Part shown: piece after piece, positions 14,085 to 46,092 of the stretch
Layout of the letters: each line of letters opens with the position of its first letter
Position numbering within the stretch: position 1 is the first letter of the stretch
Source of the DNA: an uncultured bacterium
Lineage (GTDB): Bacteria; Patescibacteriota; Minisyncoccia; UBA6257; 2-01-FULL-56-20
NCBI GenBank assembly: GCA_963725235.1
Contig: CAVRXN010000002.1
Span: 442,902 to 506,901 of the forward strand
Reading direction: 5' to 3'
DNA length: 64,000 nt
Translations under genes and position numbers: made by a program
The notes under the pieces: model-generated
Databases searched by the model: none
Told to the model about the DNA's origin: nothing
What the model saw: only the letters and a program-made list of their open reading frames with translations

Positions 14085-14184
14085 CTACCGTTCGTAATAA
14101 ACTCTGCTCCGCCAACGTAATAGTTTTTGCAAGCCCGGAAATTAAAGGTCGGTTGAAAACCTGTTCAATTCATACCTTAACCAT

Positions 14185-14337
14185 ATGCTCGTTACGATTG
14201 CAGTTATCTTGCTGATACTTTGGCTGCTTGGTATCGTGACTTCCTACACGATCGGCGGCTTTATCTACATCCTGTTAGTCGCCGCCATCATTCTTTTCCT
14301 TATTCGGATCATACAAGGAAAGAATCCGGTGCAGTAG
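14185..14337 (+). CDS. small two-TM peptide, Lmo0937-family-like
   Basis: Below the ORF-track cutoff. ATG 14185, TAG 14335-14337. Product: MLVTIAVILLILWLLGIVTSYTIGGFIYILLVAAIILFLIRIIQGKNPVQ (50 aa). Confidence 0.55.
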   Translation: MLVTIAVILLILWLLGIVTSYTIGGFIYILLVAAIILFLIRIIQGKNPVQ

Positions 14338-14351
14338 TAAAACAAGTTCAT

Positions 14352-14419
14352 CAGAGAATATATTAAAAAAGAGCGAATCCGTTCTGACGGCTCTTCACTC
14401 TTTTTTAATATATTCTCTG
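14352..14419. terminator. bidirectional terminator hairpin between convergent genes
   Basis: Perfect 22-bp inverted repeat: CAGAGAATATATTAAAAAAGAG (14352-14373) and CTCTTTTTTAATATATTCTCTG (14398-14419). It contains A/T runs on both strands. Confidence 0.7.
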
Positions 14420-14423
14420 GGGC

Positions 14424-34304: not shown

Positions 34305-36380
34305 TTATGATATTTTGATCTTCTCCATCCTCTCCACCTCCCCCGCCGTCAAAATATATTCCGTATGTTCATCGAATGAGCGAATAATAACGCACGCGAT
34401 TGCGCCGACGAGCCCGACGGCAATCAGCCAGAAGATGTGCCAGACGAGTGCGAAACCGAGTGCGAGGACAAACGCGGAAAGATAGATTGCCATGCCGGTG
34501 TTTTTGGACATTTCGATGTCTTCATAACGCGCGGAGTTTTTTGGAGCGGCTGCCGACGCGCCACCGAGAGATTGTCCTTTTGCCTCCGCCGCTTTTTTCG
34601 TTTCCCAAAACGGATCGCGGCTCGCGACGGTTGGCGTCATCGCAAAATTATAGAACGGCACCGGCGACGCGGTTGCCCATTCCAAAGTGTGCCCATTCCA
34701 AGGATCGGCGCCGGGCGAACCGGCAACGCCAACCGCGCGGTTCGCGGGCAACCGCCGATCTCGAACTGAAACAATAACCTGAATAATCTGCGCCAAAAAA
34801 CCAAGAGCGATAATACAAACGCCAACGGCGGCGACTATAAACCATCCCTGCCAGCCGGTCGAAGCGGGATATTGGTTCATGCGGCGGACGGCGCCTTCGG
34901 AACCAAGAATATAGAGTGGCCCGAACGAAACGAAGAAGCCGATGAGCCACAACCAAAACGCGCGCTTACCCCATTTTTCGTCGAGACGGAATCCGAATAT
35001 TTTTGGGAACCAATACGTTATGCCGGCGAAGATGCCGAACAGGCCAGCGCCGACGATCATCGTGTGGAAATGCGCGACCAAAAATAACGTGTTGTGGAGC
35101 TGATAGTCGGCGGCGGGTGTTGCCAGCAAAACTCCTGCCATACCGCCAAAAGTAAATAAAGCGACGAAGCCGAGGAACCAATACATCGGCGTGTAGAATC
35201 GGATGCGACCGCGCCACATCGTCGCGATCCAATTGAAAATTTGCACGCCAGCGGGTATCGCGATTAGCATCGTCGAGATGCCGAAGAACGCGTTCACGTC
35301 GCTGCCCGCGCCCATCGTGAAAAAGTGGTGCACCCAAACGAGGCACGCGAGAAGCGACACGCAGATCAGCGCGCAGACCATCGAGATGTAGCCGAAAATC
35401 TTTTTTTGCGAAAACGTCGAAACGACTTCGGAGAAAATGCCGAACGACGGCAAAACGAGAATGTACACTTCCGGATGCCCCCACATCCAGATCAAGTTGA
35501 TGTACATCATCGGATTGCCGCCGAAGCTCGACGTGAAAAAGTGCATGCCGAACATTCGGTCGAGCCAGAGCAGCGCGATCGTTACCGTCAACACCGGGAA
35601 AACGGAAACGATCAATACCGAGCTAAGCAGTGCCGACCAGCTAAAGAGCGGCATCATGAACAGCTTCATCCCCTTCGCGCGCATCTTGATGATCGTCGCG
35701 ATAAAGTTCAAGCCGCCAAGCAAGCTGCCGAGTCCGGAAATTTGCAGTGACCAAATCCAGTAATCGACGCCAGTGCCAGGACTGTACGCGAGTTCGGAAA
35801 GCGGCGGGATCGAAAGCCAGCCGGCGCTCGCGAACTGTCCGCCAAAGATGAAAAACATATTAACTAAAATCGCGCCCGCGACGTAGAGCCAAAAACCGAG
35901 CGAGTTGAGAAATGGATACGCGAGATCGCGTGCGCCGATTTGCAACGGAACGATCAAGTTCATCAAGCCGACCAGCAAGCCCATCGTCGCGAAGAAGACC
36001 ATGATGTCGCCGTGTGCGGTGAAAATTTGCTGGAAGTGCGATGCGTCGAGATAGCCGACGGCGCTGCCAAGAAACGCATGTTGCGCAACGCCGTTCGCGT
36101 TCACCGCGCCAAGCGATTGCTGCAACCAGATCATGACGGCGTCGAGTCCCCCGCGGAACAACATCAGCATCGCGACAACGATGTACATGATGCCGATCTT
36201 TTTCGGATCGGTTGAGGTCAGATATTCTTTCCAAAGCCACTTCCAGCGGCGATAATATGTTAGGCCCGCCACGAATGCGATGCCGCCTAGGGCGATTGCC
36301 GCCGTACCGCCGATCGTAAACCACTGGTGCGGCAGATCGGACCACGTTAGGTTGCCGAAGAAGAATTGGGTGAGGGACAT
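34305..36380 (-). CDS. cyoB: heme-copper quinol oxidase subunit I
   Basis: GHPEVYILVLP, HHFFTMG and VAHFHTMIVG (heme/CuB ligand motifs). 691 aa. Confidence 0.95.
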   Translation of the reverse strand: MSLTQFFFGNLTWSDLPHQWFTIGGTAAIALGGIAFVAGLTYYRRWKWLWKEYLTSTDPKKIGIMYIVVAMLMLFRGGLDAVMIWLQQSLGAVNANGVAQHAFLGSAVGYLDASHFQQIFTAHGDIMVFFATMGLLVGLMNLIVPLQIGARDLAYPFLNSLGFWLYVAGAILVNMFFIFGGQFASAGWLSIPPLSELAYSPGTGVDYWIWSLQISGLGSLLGGLNFIATIIKMRAKGMKLFMMPLFSWSALLSSVLIVSVFPVLTVTIALLWLDRMFGMHFFTSSFGGNPMMYINLIWMWGHPEVYILVLPSFGIFSEVVSTFSQKKIFGYISMVCALICVSLLACLVWVHHFFTMGAGSDVNAFFGISTMLIAIPAGVQIFNWIATMWRGRIRFYTPMYWFLGFVALFTFGGMAGVLLATPAADYQLHNTLFLVAHFHTMIVGAGLFGIFAGITYWFPKIFGFRLDEKWGKRAFWLWLIGFFVSFGPLYILGSEGAVRRMNQYPASTGWQGWFIVAAVGVCIIALGFLAQIIQVIVSVRDRRLPANRAVGVAGSPGADPWNGHTLEWATASPVPFYNFAMTPTVASRDPFWETKKAAEAKGQSLGGASAAAPKNSARYEDIEMSKNTGMAIYLSAFVLALGFALVWHIFWLIAVGLVGAIACVIIRSFDEHTEYILTAGEVERMEKIKIS

Positions 36381-36431
36381 GGATGTCGGACTTATAGATT
36401 TATTATAGCGCGATTATGATTTGATTATTTT

Positions 36432-37391
36432 TTACATCTCCATCCCAGGCATCCCCTCCATCGTCCCGGATGAATTCATTCCCATCGTCGTAGTCGCTGT
36501 CATCATCGTTCCTGTCCCCATCGGCATCATATATTTCATCATCACGCCATCGAACAGCCCGGGCGCGACAAATGAATAGTACGCAACCGGATTATTTTCG
36601 GAAGGCGCGGCCAGAGTATTATAAGTATCCATCGTCAGCGGCGGATACGCCGGCGGTGTGCTTGTAGAAGTGCTCGTCGTCGCGCCCGCGGCGCTACCCT
36701 GCACCTCCGCCACCCATCCCGCAAAATCCCCCGGCGAAACCGAATCCGCCTCAAACGTCATCCCCGCATACCCCTCGCCATTAATCTCCGTGTCACGGCC
36801 GGTATACTCGCCGGTCGAAGACGCGAGCAAGTTAAGTTGCGTCATCATCGCGGCCATCGCGTAGATTTGCGAACCGAGCTGCGGGATCCAGAATGAGCTC
36901 ATCGGCGCGTCCGCGGTCAACTCGAAATGGACCGGCTCGCCCGCTGGAAACTCGATAAAGTTGACCGTCGCGATATTCTGCGCCGGATATATAAAGAGCC
37001 ACTTCCACGGCAGCGCGACAACTTCGATCGTCAGCGGCGCGCCATCGCCCGCGGCCACCGCCGACGCCGACGGCGTAAGCGACTGCTGCGGATCAAGCGC
37101 ATGCGCACTTTTCCAATTCAAAATTCCGAGAACGAAAATCAGCGACGCCGGAATCAACCACAAAATAATCTGACTCCATGCCGCGCGGGAGGAATGGTCG
37201 GGTTCGTACTTTGGTTCATTAAAACTTCGCACTCCTTTTTTTTCATCCGGCCGCACCCTATACCTTCGCACCACCGTAAACAACGCGATGAACATCGGCA
37301 CAACGATGATCAGCATCAAGCCGACCATCAGTTCGATCAGATGCGCTTGTGCCGCTGCAACCGGCCCGGCTGGGTTGAAAAACGAGGTCAT
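36432..37391 (-). CDS. cyoA: quinol oxidase subunit II (no CuA cysteines) with Met-rich C-terminal tail
   Basis: SFWIPQLGSQIYAMAAMMTQLNL is CyoA-like and there is no CxxxC CuA motif. Tail: MMKYMMPMGTGTMMTATTTMGMNSSGTMEGMPGMEM. Confidence 0.85.
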   Translation of the reverse strand: MTSFFNPAGPVAAAQAHLIELMVGLMLIIVVPMFIALFTVVRRYRVRPDEKKGVRSFNEPKYEPDHSSRAAWSQIILWLIPASLIFVLGILNWKSAHALDPQQSLTPSASAVAAGDGAPLTIEVVALPWKWLFIYPAQNIATVNFIEFPAGEPVHFELTADAPMSSFWIPQLGSQIYAMAAMMTQLNLLASSTGEYTGRDTEINGEGYAGMTFEADSVSPGDFAGWVAEVQGSAAGATTSTSTSTPPAYPPLTMDTYNTLAAPSENNPVAYYSFVAPGLFDGVMMKYMMPMGTGTMMTATTTMGMNSSGTMEGMPGMEM

Positions 37392-43782: not shown

Positions 43783-44988
43783 TCATTTAGCAAATAATCT
43801 TCCAAGCGCTTGGCGTTTCTCGTCTGGCGATAAGCGCATGCGGCGCACCGCCTCGCCGAGGATCTGTATCGTCTGGTCATAGGTCTTCCGGTCGACGGCA
43901 TACGGCGTCGCATCCTTGCCGCCATGCGCGAAACTATATCGCGCCGGGTCTTCGTATGATGGATTCGCGCCATAAATAACCTCGCCGACCAGTGCGAGCG
44001 CGCGTACGGTTTTTGGCCCAACCCCTTCCATTGCGACGAGCTTCTCATAATTCTCCGGCTTGCGGTCCGTAACTTTCGCGAGAATTTTTTCGAGGTATTT
44101 GCTCCGTGCAAAATCTTCGTGGACGACTGGGTGATATTTAAACTCGCGCGATTCGAGATTGAGAACCGTTAACTCGCGATCTTCAAACAACCCTTCCTGC
44201 CCACGCTGCCGTAACTTCACCATCTGCGACAATCGCGACGAATGTTTCCGCAAAAGCTGAATATCTTTCATCAACGTAAAATATCCCGCTTGCACGAGCT
44301 CGGTCGAAAGCTCGCGCGTCGACGCGCTGCCCCGCGCCGTCAAGTTCAACACGCGATTCATAACGACCGGCGACGAAATCGCCGCATGCGGCTCCGCAAC
44401 CAGATCATCGATATTCTCCGAAAACCAATGATAGCGGCGCGCCTTCGCGGCTTCGGCGTTCATACCCTGCTGAACAACCGCCCATGAACCAATTTTCGCG
44501 CGGCCCATCGCCGCATCGCGCACGCGCGAAAAGAAAAAAGCATGATGATACAGCTGAAACCCATCTTGAACCAAAGCGCTATCAACCTTCGCGCTCATCT
44601 TCGAGTTATAAACCAAATTTTCCGTCGGCGCCTCGGCAAGCGCGAGCCGTTCGCCCCACGTACGAATTTCATCCGGCGTTTTCCGCGAAGTCGCACCTTT
44701 GCCGCCGCAGATAAAAATCCCAAGCTCGCGCTCTTCGCCGCGAATCGCTTCTTTCAGCGCCGCCGTCAAAATAGTTGTTAAACCGGAAGCGTTCCAGTCA
44801 AACGCCAACACCGTTCCGAGCGATTGAAACCAAACCGGATCAGCGATGCGCCGGATGAACTCATCCGGCCCATATTCGGCCACCAAGACGCGCACCATCT
44901 CGCGCCCCAGCGCCACCATGCGCCGAAAAAGCCACGGCGGACAATGTCCGCCATCAAGCCCGAAGGATGCAATGCCACGTTGGATCAT
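43783..44988 (-). CDS. DUF763 family protein with C-terminal helix-hairpin-helix
   Basis: GLDGGHCPPWLF..FDWNASGLTT..ICGGKG..VGPKTVRALALVGEVIYG. The family assignment is from memory. Confidence 0.6.
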   Translation of the reverse strand: MIQRGIASFGLDGGHCPPWLFRRMVALGREMVRVLVAEYGPDEFIRRIADPVWFQSLGTVLAFDWNASGLTTILTAALKEAIRGEERELGIFICGGKGATSRKTPDEIRTWGERLALAEAPTENLVYNSKMSAKVDSALVQDGFQLYHHAFFFSRVRDAAMGRAKIGSWAVVQQGMNAEAAKARRYHWFSENIDDLVAEPHAAISSPVVMNRVLNLTARGSASTRELSTELVQAGYFTLMKDIQLLRKHSSRLSQMVKLRQRGQEGLFEDRELTVLNLESREFKYHPVVHEDFARSKYLEKILAKVTDRKPENYEKLVAMEGVGPKTVRALALVGEVIYGANPSYEDPARYSFAHGGKDATPYAVDRKTYDQTIQILGEAVRRMRLSPDEKRQALGRLFAK

Positions 44989-45034
44989 ATATATAGTATA
45001 TACAATCTAGCGATGACTGTTATGCACAACCCAC

Positions 45035-45062
45035 TTGATTCTTATAGTTGTATTGCTACAAT
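45035..45062 (+). promoter_or_regulatory. promoter TTGATT-N16-TACAAT for the 45069 RNA
   Basis: TTGATT at 45035-45040 and TACAAT at 45057-45062. The first G of the RNA closing helix lies 7 nt downstream. Confidence 0.55.
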
Positions 45063-45068
45063 GATTGT

Positions 45069-45364
45069 GGGTTCAGTTCTTTGCGAATAAAACAACCGTG
45101 ATTCCCGTGCGACCACGGGAACCCAGGACAAACCAGAGGCGCAGTACGAAGCCGATGACGGGAGTTGTAGGACCTTCGCGCAAGAAGGCTCCTGAGTAGT
45201 GCAGCGACATGTGCACGTGCTGTTGCATGAATCAACGGGTCGAGACAACTTGAAGGAAATTCATTTTTCCGAAAGGTTCGCCCGTAATCCTAAACGTGAA
45301 GAACTGAGCCCCTTTGCTCTTTTGTTTTTATCATCTTAGCCGACGCTCGTCGTCGGCTTTTTTA
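45069..45364 (+). ncRNA. structured RNA of about 296 nt, class not identified
   Basis: Closing helix GGGTTCAGTTCTT (45069-81) with AAGAACTGAGCCC (45299-311). Internal hairpins include TTCCCGTG-cgac-CACGGGAA. Terminator AGCCGACG-ctcgt-CGTCGGCT + TTTTTTATT (45338-45364). Confidence 0.55.
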
Positions 45365-45415
45365 TTGACACACATACTATGATTTTGTATCTTTACTACC
45401 AGAAGGAGAAATTAC

Positions 45416-45745
45416 ATGGATCGGGACGTCAGTGAGCACATTTCCCAAAGTGAAATTGACCTTTTTTTGAAACAGGCGGACCAGCGAATAAAAATACTAC
45501 ATAAGTTAACTTTTTATGTACTGTTTGCCGCCATGGACCTTGATTCAGCCGTGAAAGAGCTCCACTTGTTTGAGGCTAAATTTGATGGCACGAAAACAGC
45601 ATACGATGTATGGCGACATGTAGCCAGCTGTTATAAATGCCGTCTAGTGTACGCTAAAATTTATGACTACAATTTGCCTCAAGCATTGAAACCTTCAGGG
45701 TTTTTATGGAGGGCATACATAAAGACGTTGGAGCCAGGGTGGTGA
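45416..45745 (+). CDS. hypothetical protein with C-terminal H-x3-C-x2-C motif
   Basis: AAGGAG lies 8 nt before the ATG. Contains WRHVASCYKCRLVY. AT-rich codon usage compared with the flanks. Confidence 0.5.
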   Translation: MDRDVSEHISQSEIDLFLKQADQRIKILHKLTFYVLFAAMDLDSAVKELHLFEAKFDGTKTAYDVWRHVASCYKCRLVYAKIYDYNLPQALKPSGFLWRAYIKTLEPGW

Positions 45746-45818
45746 TATCATTATCTCGGCACAGTGTATGCACTCAAAAAGCGCTGACAGCAGCAATGCA
45801 TCAGCGCCTTTTTATTAC

Positions 45819-46082
45819 TCACAACTTCTGATAAATATCCTTTCTATCCCGAAACCGAAGCAAAATAATTTCGTTTTTCGTGATGCGATATACCAATCGA
45901 TACGAACCAATTCGAATTCGGAAAACGGAACCTTGTATTCCATGAAGTTTTTTCGCGCTGAGTGAGGGATCGGCAGGATTGTCTCGAAGTAGAGCGATTA
46001 TATTGTTAATACGCTTACGCATTTCCGGTTGAACGTCTTTAATATCCCCGCTAAATTGCGGGGCACTGAATATTTCTCGCAT
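45819..46082 (-). CDS. relE: type II toxin, RelE/ParE family
   Basis: 87 aa containing KKLHGIQGSVFRIRIGSYRLVYRITKNEIILLRFRDRKDIY. Confidence 0.8.
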   Translation of the reverse strand: MREIFSAPQFSGDIKDVQPEMRKRINNIIALLRDNPADPSLSAKKLHGIQGSVFRIRIGSYRLVYRITKNEIILLRFRDRKDIYQKL

Positions 46083-46092
46083 GCCTTATTGC

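Follow-up and report, generated by a model that had tools for sequence, protein, structure and literature searches.

A window of 64,000 nt from an uncultured Patescibacteria bacterium (by the window we mean this whole stretch of DNA) contains a gap of 427 nt (44989-45415) between the start of a DUF763 gene on the minus strand and a 109-amino-acid (109-aa) open reading frame (ORF) on the plus strand. The gap is among the largest in a tightly packed sequence, and a first-pass annotation, made from the sequence letters, had placed in it an unclassified structured RNA. The analysis described here concerns this candidate noncoding RNA (ncRNA) gene. Homologs of the DUF763 protein number in the thousands, and the nearest named ones are from metagenome-assembled genomes (MAGs) of Candidatus Paceibacterota, Minisyncoccia, and Patescibacteria, and the host is a bacterium of the Paceibacteria type (candidate phyla radiation [CPR]/Patescibacteria). 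The identical sequence is also present on a 0.51-Mb NCBI/ENA contig and on a Logan contig. The other genes nearby are unremarkable (trigger factor, MsrB, an M50 protease, and a ParDE pair). The GC content is ∼0.42 to 0.45 across 45200-46800 and ∼0.55 in the flanks, in agreement with the AT-rich islet at whose border the RNA had been placed. Because the genomes of Patescibacteria/CPR are tiny and dense, the allotment of ∼430 nt to a noncoding gene is notable, and almost nothing is known about CPR RNAs outside the housekeeping set.

Predicted transcript and fold

The features of the locus are collected in Table 1. A sigma-70-type promoter lies where it had been proposed, with a TG ahead of the -10 box, and the expected transcription start, ∼7 nt past that box, is G45069. 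This nucleotide is the first base of the terminal helix, as the first-pass annotation had also noted. The canonical terminator that it reported is likewise present and is strong; its stem (45338-45358) has 8 pairs, of which 6 are GC, and a T-run comes directly after it. The transcript would therefore begin at about G45069 and end at the terminator near 45364, for a predicted length of ∼296 nt. Possession of its own promoter and terminator, as expected of a stand-alone ncRNA gene, is evident in the window copy and conserved in L003, the one homolog found (see below). The promoter of L003 reads TTGACT-16-TACAAT with an identical TGCTACAAT, its terminator has the same stem with a different loop, and the 80 nt from the DUF763 start codon to the RNA start are identical at 70/80 positions.

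The sequence from 45065 to 45315 (251 nt) folds with a free energy of -98.2 kcal/mol (z = -6.09), and none of 200 dinucleotide shuffles was equally stable, whereas the reverse complement of the same segment reached only z = -2.97. The fold is thus above chance in stability and specific to the plus strand. It consists of a 243-nt core domain closed by a long helix, P1, from which a five-way junction opens. When the linker and terminator were added, the minimum free energy (MFE) structure was the same as the centroid and comprised the domain, 26 unpaired nt, and an intact terminator hairpin. The linker was unpaired in the MFE and centroid structures of both homologs, forming a pyrimidine-rich single-stranded stretch of 26 to 36 nt. 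Inspection of the fold also indicated that AGGA (45125-45128) could form a pseudoknot with UCCU (45289-45292).

P1 is made up of 17 contiguous pairs, including three G-U pairs. The closing helix had been described as 13 bp long; those pairs were confirmed, but they run without interruption into the UGCG/CGUG extension, and the length is corrected accordingly. As DNA, the P1 repeat is imperfect, matching at 14/17 positions, and all three mismatches are conserved G-U pairs on the plus strand. Because these would be A-C mismatches on the other strand, they mark the plus strand as the functional one, and an inverted repeat acting at the DNA level is disfavored. The internal hairpins proposed earlier fared unevenly. 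The hairpin UUCCCGUG-CGAC-CACGGGAA is present in the fold, and the one written as CAGC(G)AC...GUGCUG exists but is correctly given as GUGCAGCG-A-CAUG/CGUG-C-UGUUGCAU, while the pairing CGAAG..CUUCG occurs neither in the MFE structure nor in the structure common to the homolog. The statement that the only ORFs inside the RNA are 13 to 14 codons long is true for an ATG-type reading, but ORFs of 44 to 68 aa with TTG, GTG, or ATG starts overlap the region on both strands. Since these mechanically called ORFs of the window copy are not conserved in L003, except at the invariant RNA end, the region is noncoding.

Table 1. Coordinates of the RNA gene, its structural elements, and the adjoining genes in the window
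Feature	Positions	Strand	Description
DUF763 gene	43783-44988	minus	Pfam E 5e-118
Promoter	45035-45062	+	-35 TTGATT, 16-nt spacer, extended -10 TG-n-TACAAT (consensus scan)
Structured core	45069-45311	+	Five-way junction: P1, P2 (bearing P3 and P4), P5, P6, P7
P1, 5′ strand	45069-45085	+	GGGUUCAGUUCUUUGCG; invariant in both homologs; pairs with 45295-45311
Junction strand J1/2	45086-45095	+	AAUAAAACAA; unpaired, invariant
P2 domain	45096-45161	+	P2 CCGU/ACGG, 45096-99 with 45158-61; encloses P3 and P4
Hairpin P3	45102-45121	+	Inside P2 domain
Single strand AGGAYAAACC	45125-45134	+	Conserved, inside P2 domain
Hairpin P4	45134-45157	+	Inside P2 domain; tandem G-A in window copy
Hairpin P5	45169-45193	+	AGGA-CCUUC ... 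GAAGG-C-UCCU
Hairpin P6	45199-45228	+	Length and sequence differ between homologs
Hairpin P7	45235-45285	+	Long, irregular
Junction strand J7/1	45286-45294	+	AAUCCUAAA; unpaired, invariant
P1, 3′ strand	45295-45311	+	CGUGAAGAACUGAGCCC; invariant
Linker	45312-45337	+	26 nt, pyrimidine-rich, single-stranded
Intrinsic terminator	45338-45364	+	AGCCGACG-CUCGU-CGUCGGCU, then U6
109-aa ORFan	45416-45745	+	AAGGAGA ribosome-binding site; promoter-like site 45365-45393

A single homolog and the pattern of constraint

The sole homolog of the RNA was found upstream of the DUF763 gene on a metagenome contig, L003, whose DUF763 protein is 91% identical to that of the window by BLASTP and 93.8% identical in a global alignment. 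The RNA was matched by nhmmer with an E value of 5e-24, and a covariance model built from the window copy (R1) scored 93 bits on L003 (E 6.5e-28). Both copies fold independently into the same architecture, with a 17-bp P1, P2 bearing P3 and P4, and P5, P6, and P7. In a structural alignment of the two copies, 55 pairs are shared and 97.3% are paired; 10 pairs show compensatory changes on both sides, and 5 are changed on one side. None of 500 shuffles reached the observed values, and sliding the 3′ partners yielded 0 to 3 compensatory changes and 32 to 46% pairing. These counts come from a hand-made, N-padded colinear structural alignment of two sequences. The automatic MAFFT/RNAalifold alignment misaligns the diverged middle, and the Infernal alignment contains a spurious minus-strand self-match, so the pairs were counted on the alignment made by hand.

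The changes are spread over the internal helices. Of the 9 pairs of P5, three have compensatory changes and one is changed on one side only; P3 and P4 carry one compensatory change each, and a C-G pair of P2 is replaced by U-G. The basal 6 pairs of P7 can be aligned and include one compensatory and one one-sided change. A P6 hairpin is present at the same place in both copies with a wholly different sequence, and its positional homology is uncertain; with P6 omitted, 6 compensatory pairs are left, in P3, P4, P5, and P7. The compensatory changes support a selected RNA structure, as far as can be judged from two sequences and an alignment fitted to the structure. The first-pass annotation had named homologs and covariation as the means of checking its RNA gene, and L003 with its 10 compensatory changes speaks in its favor, with the little statistical power that two sequences afford.

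Conservation is concentrated at the ends of the domain. The first 30 and the last 29 nt of the RNA are 100% identical between the window and L003. By comparison, identity is 67% at the 4-fold degenerate sites of the neighboring DUF763 gene, so that the neutral chance of 59 identical terminal nucleotides is ∼0.67^59, or ∼6e-11. The middle of the RNA is ∼65% identical, with indels, and conservation is lowest in the linker, which also carries indels. All 17 P1 pairs are unchanged, compared with 18/38 other pairs that differ (15 keep standard pairing and 3 have a non-standard pair), and P1 is therefore constrained in sequence and not merely in pairing. The strands AGGAYAAACC and GCCGAKGACGG are also conserved between the copies.

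The RNA is missing from the slot between MsrB and DUF763 in seven loci of relatives (L004, L006, L008, L009, L010, L091, and L094), whose DUF763 proteins are 80 to 90% identical to that of the window. The divergent arrangement of the RNA and DUF763 that the first-pass annotation remarked on is present but incidental, since most DUF763 loci of relatives lack the RNA. In L008, ParE directly abuts the DUF763 promoter; positions 45011-45810 of the window, comprising the RNA gene, the 109-aa ORF, and a terminator, thus correspond to an indel of ∼800 nt. Across close relatives the slot (45011-46750 in the window, 3518-4000 in L004, 3292-4000 in L006, 397-980 in L008, 2625-3000 in L009, and 358-631 in L091) holds differing small genes, namely, ParDE, coiled-coil or membrane ORFans (orphan ORFs), or, here, the RNA and the 109-aa ORFan. 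The slot behaves as a hotspot for accessory genes.

Further copies were sought in several collections. Among 185,579 species-representative genomes, the exact pattern CGAATAAAACN{165,195}TAATCCTAAAC gave 6 chance matches in unrelated taxa, and the exact pattern GCGAATAAAACN{2,8}GTGATTCCC gave 5 chance matches in JGI metagenome contigs, a collection that is incomplete for this lineage, as the L003 contig itself was not returned. Four exact-pattern scans of IMG/VR viral contigs returned chance matches or nothing, and two viral matches to an internal motif proved to be one phage coding sequence. No match to the RNA was obtained by blastn in phage and plasmid collections. A search with nhmmer and R1 over 112 fetched loci (∼1 Mb) revealed no further copy and so bore out that the pattern matches were due to chance, and the 64-kb window contains no paralog. 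Pattern scans require exact matches and carry little information on distant homologs, so that an apparent absence of distant homologs is weakly supported. Among close relatives, these sequence comparisons show a narrow distribution.

Relation to known RNAs and rival explanations

A search of the whole window with Rfam 15 at gathering scores gave a single match, a tRNA at 63790-63864, and none at the RNA. At an E value of ≤10, the 501 nt at 44950-45450 matched only rseX, sR34, sRNA71, and freshwater-2, with 14 to 21 bits against thresholds of 40 to 50, and these permissive matches were driven by the terminator or the ribosome-binding site. Under the same permissive settings there was no match to any riboswitch family or to the models of RNase P (bacterial A/B, archaeal, and type T), 6S RNA, signal recognition particle (SRP) RNA, or transfer-messenger RNA (tmRNA). 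In the window ARAGORN called two tRNAs but identified no tmRNA. The five-way junction differs from the rod with a central bubble that characterizes 6S RNA, and the RNA is a single non-repetitive fold that lacks the tandem repeats of type III antitoxins. Scans of 30 window ORFs, comprising the largest and all neighbors of the RNA, revealed no reverse transcriptase (RT), Cas, IscB/TnpB, insertion sequence (IS), Ro/TROVE, or other RNA-guided gene. A retron or defense-associated RT (DRT) RNA would have an adjacent RT gene, and an OMEGA or bridge RNA would be accompanied by an IscB, TnpB, or IS110 gene; a retron or OMEGA guide RNA was rejected since no gene of these kinds was found among the neighboring or other large ORFs scanned. 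The invariant ends and variable middle of the RNA are, moreover, the reverse of the OMEGA/bridge guide pattern. A tRNA with an intron was also rejected, since a continuous 17-bp helix with no T-arm is incompatible with a tRNA, and so was a group I intron, since no model of that class matched. In a literature search, no CPR RNA was found described that matches this one, and nothing of use emerged on DUF763. The earlier statement that no signature of RNase P, SRP, tmRNA, 6S, or the riboswitch classes considered could be recognized thus withstood both Rfam settings and ARAGORN. We conclude that the RNA belongs to no described family and represents a new family of stand-alone structured bacterial ncRNA.

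Resemblances to known systems are partial. Like the orphan large or "ornate" ncRNAs (raiA-motif, HEARO, ROOL, and OLE), the RNA has a gene to itself, complete with promoter and terminator, and it combines a multihelix junction with a conserved core and a variable periphery; its function, too, cannot be deduced from its neighbors. It differs from them in having no Rfam 15 match, in being much rarer, with two instances in one narrow Patescibacteria lineage, and in the unusual length of its terminal helix, whose sequence is invariant. Y RNAs of Ro60 ribonucleoproteins (RNPs) and scaffold RNAs share a long end stem conserved in sequence, a variable distal part, and accessory status, but the present RNA has no Y RNA or tRNA-like module, no Rfam match, and no Ro/TROVE gene among the window ORFs scanned, and it is 2 to 3 times longer than known bacterial Y RNAs. 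The type III toxin-antitoxin loci (toxIN, cptIN, and tenpIN) are alike in gene order and in location, the RNA lying in an accessory islet next to the toxin-antitoxin pair ParDE; here, however, a single complex fold replaces the tandem short repeats, and the 109-aa protein has no similarity to ToxN, CptN, TenpN, or any PADLOC model. The lysine riboswitch (L-box) and other multiway aptamers likewise have five helices radiating from a conserved junction closed by P1 and followed by a terminator, and they differ from the present RNA in that it has no Rfam match, an invariant 17-bp P1, no antiterminator, and a downstream ORFan with a promoter-like site of its own.

It is very probable that the element is a real stand-alone structured ncRNA, as the first-pass annotation had proposed. 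Its own promoter and terminator, the plus-strand fold, the lack of an Rfam family and of a conserved ORF, and the L003 homolog all point in this direction. The claim that the terminator separates the RNA from the next gene also held, since the fold contains no competing antiterminator and a separate promoter-like site precedes the ORF. Taken as a whole, the explanation that we favor, with somewhat better than even confidence, is an independently transcribed structured ncRNA gene of a new and narrow family that acts as an RNP scaffold. The invariant core consists of P1, both junction strands, the P2/P3 base, and the AGGAYAAACC and GCCGAKGACGG strands, and the peripheral hairpins P3 to P7 retain pairing while losing sequence. 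Under this proposal, a protein partner would be bound by a sequence-specific three-dimensional platform built from the invariant helix and junction, and the RNA would act in trans as an RNP scaffold or as a sequestering RNA. A platform recognized by a partner is suggested because the junction core and the helix sequence are constrained while the peripheral arms drift, and an accessory rather than a housekeeping function is suggested because close relatives lack the gene and the islet that houses it is variable. The protein-binding mechanism taken by itself is tentative, and we regard it as plausible rather than probable.

Several observations weigh against this explanation. No RNA-guided, RT, or Ro/TROVE partner is encoded among the 30 ORFs scanned. 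The covariation derives from two close relatives and a hand-fitted alignment and is suggestive rather than statistically established. The perfect conservation of the helix could reflect a role at the DNA level or the pairing of its strands with other targets, and a leader, or a two-gene RNA-protein module, would likewise fit the order of promoter, RNA, terminator, and ORF.

The ORF concerned begins 52 nt past the RNA terminator on the same strand, and a promoter-like site, TTGACA-17-TATCTT, lies between the two. Among 1.84 billion cluster representatives, the 109-aa protein has one relative, with 47% identity; it has no Pfam, PADLOC, or PHROG match, and tblastn against phages found nothing. 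Its AlphaFold2 (AF2) model is uninformative (predicted local distance difference test [pLDDT] score of 55) and too poor for a fold search. The ORF is absent from L008 together with the RNA, and since the L003 contig ends at the RNA terminator, the co-occurrence of the RNA and the ORF has been seen once only. The convergent 109-aa ORF and ParE are separated by a bidirectional terminator (45750-45815), a hairpin (GGCGCTGA...TCAGCGCC) with A- and T-runs on its flanks.

The RNA and the 109-aa ORFan could form a two-gene module, an addiction islet beside ParDE in which the RNA binds or neutralizes the protein or serves as its RNA subunit. The two are adjacent on one strand with only the terminator between them, in the layout of promoter, RNA, terminator, and protein gene that is seen in type III toxin-antitoxin loci such as toxIN; in the comparison with L008, both are present or both are missing; each is extremely rare, with one homolog of the RNA and one distant relative of the protein; and the slot carries varied small accessory genes in relatives. 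We nevertheless consider such a module unlikely, given that the RNA lacks the tandem repeats that define type III antitoxins, that neither database matches nor the structure model inform on the protein, that the linkage stands on a single instance, and that the ORF has a promoter-like site of its own. The same arrangement of a P1-closed domain, a terminator, and an ORF 52 nt further on, together with an aptamer-like combination of a conserved junction core and variable peripheral helices, would suit a cis-acting leader, either riboswitch-like or a protein-sensed attenuator, in which the five-way junction controls the terminator and thereby the ORF. This reading is very unlikely. An invariant 17-bp P1 is far too stable for a switching helix, P1 and the terminator coexist without alternative pairing in the MFE and centroid structures of both homologs, and the linker is less conserved than any other part. 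The promoter-like site upstream of the ORF, the lack of any riboswitch match even at permissive settings, and a would-be regulated gene that is an ORFan without a metabolic signature further count against it. A trans-acting small RNA (sRNA), in which purine-rich (Shine-Dalgarno-like) mRNA segments base pair with the C/U-rich linker or with the junction strands and the large domain only confers stability, would account for the unpaired pyrimidine-rich stretch, the terminator hairpin, and the U-tail seen in both homologs, but it is quite unlikely, because the indel-bearing linker shows poor conservation, most of the invariant sequence is paired, and a 243-nt five-way junction is atypical for sRNAs of the seed type.

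The two remaining explanations are far less probable. A DNA-level element, such as an insertion resembling a miniature inverted-repeat transposable element (MITE) or an operator pair with 17-bp terminal inverted repeats, would explain why the terminal repeats are invariant in sequence and why the region is an indel between relatives. However, the mismatches of the repeat as DNA coincide with conserved G-U pairs, the element is single copy in the 64 kb and absent from 112 other loci, there is no target-site duplication, the L008 indel also takes the promoter, ORF, and terminator and not just the segment bounded by the repeats, and the internal hairpins show compensatory change; we regard this explanation as highly improbable. 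A divergent or reduced housekeeping RNA, for example, one with an RNase P-like catalytic domain, is scarcely credible, even though what we take to be topological parallels exist in the ends paired as P1, a P3-like hairpin followed by AGGAYAAACC (compare conserved region I [CR-I], AGGAAAGUCC), and a possible P4-like pseudoknot to the 3′ junction, which the potential AGGA/UCCU pairing would provide. That pseudoknot would be only 4 to 5 bp, no 3′ strand of the ACAGAA...GGCUUA type is present, and none of the RNase P, 6S, SRP, and tmRNA models (E ≤ 10) nor ARAGORN recognized the RNA. It is also missing from the slot in relatives whose DUF763 proteins are 84 to 90% identical, and its junction motifs were not found by the exact-pattern scan of the species-representative genomes.

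A stand-alone structured ncRNA gene thus remains the preferred reading, and as a candidate the locus is sharply bounded, its transcript model is clear, and its five-way-junction fold is defined. Its pattern of constraint, in which the terminal helix and junction do not vary while the arms covary freely, is unusual and points to specific molecular recognition. More speculatively, and with low confidence, the RNA might be the core of a novel, lineage-specific CPR RNP or RNA-protein accessory module, whose partner would be the ORFan or a protein encoded elsewhere. Such a module could be, for instance, an RNA-based addiction or defense system of a new type or a catalytic RNA, with the helix and junction as the recognition or active site. 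The very narrow distribution limits the generality of the finding. If a partner or an activity is found, the RNA would constitute a new class and reveal which accessory RNA functions are kept by ultra-small bacteria.

Other observations in the window

With a conserved -10 box, TATACT, only ∼6 nt upstream of its ATG (gene strand, ATTGTATATACTATATATATG), the DUF763 gene is apparently leaderless or nearly so. The region around this box (44986-45010) is nearly invariant in L003, L004, L006, L008, L091, and L094, and the DUF763 protein itself is unusually conserved, with 70 to 90% identity over many Paceibacteria MAGs.

Another structured gap is located where MsrB and the M50 protease are separated by 287 nt (47165-47451), compared with only 10 to 40 nt in relatives. 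The gap is strongly structured, with dinucleotide-shuffle z values of -5.2 on the plus strand and -3.6 on the minus strand. On the minus strand it contains a tRNA-like element (core 47319-47385) with a 12-bp acceptor-like helix (GCGGUGGGCGCG/CGCGUCCACCGC) and a T-arm-like hairpin (CGGGG-UUUGAUU-CCCCG). The element was called neither by ARAGORN nor at Rfam gathering thresholds, and it has subthreshold Rfam matches to mascRNA (E 0.039) and tRNA-Sec (E 0.073). Approximately 100 nt downstream, right after a promoter-like site (TTGACA-16-TATCCT), is a 21-nt inverted copy of the "anticodon arm" (GGTTGGCAAACCCAATTCTAGC). The element in this gap is possibly another accessory ncRNA or else the tRNA-derived remnant of an attachment (att) site.

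Elsewhere in the window, an intergenic gap of 339 nt (14085-14423) folds well on both strands (mononucleotide-shuffle z, ∼-4.5) and has no Rfam match at gathering scores. A haem-copper oxidase subunit I (COX1, E 1e-136) is encoded within 34305-37391 and adjoins a subunit II-like protein with the COX aromatic-rich motif; it is unusual for a genome of Patescibacteria to encode a respiratory oxidase.

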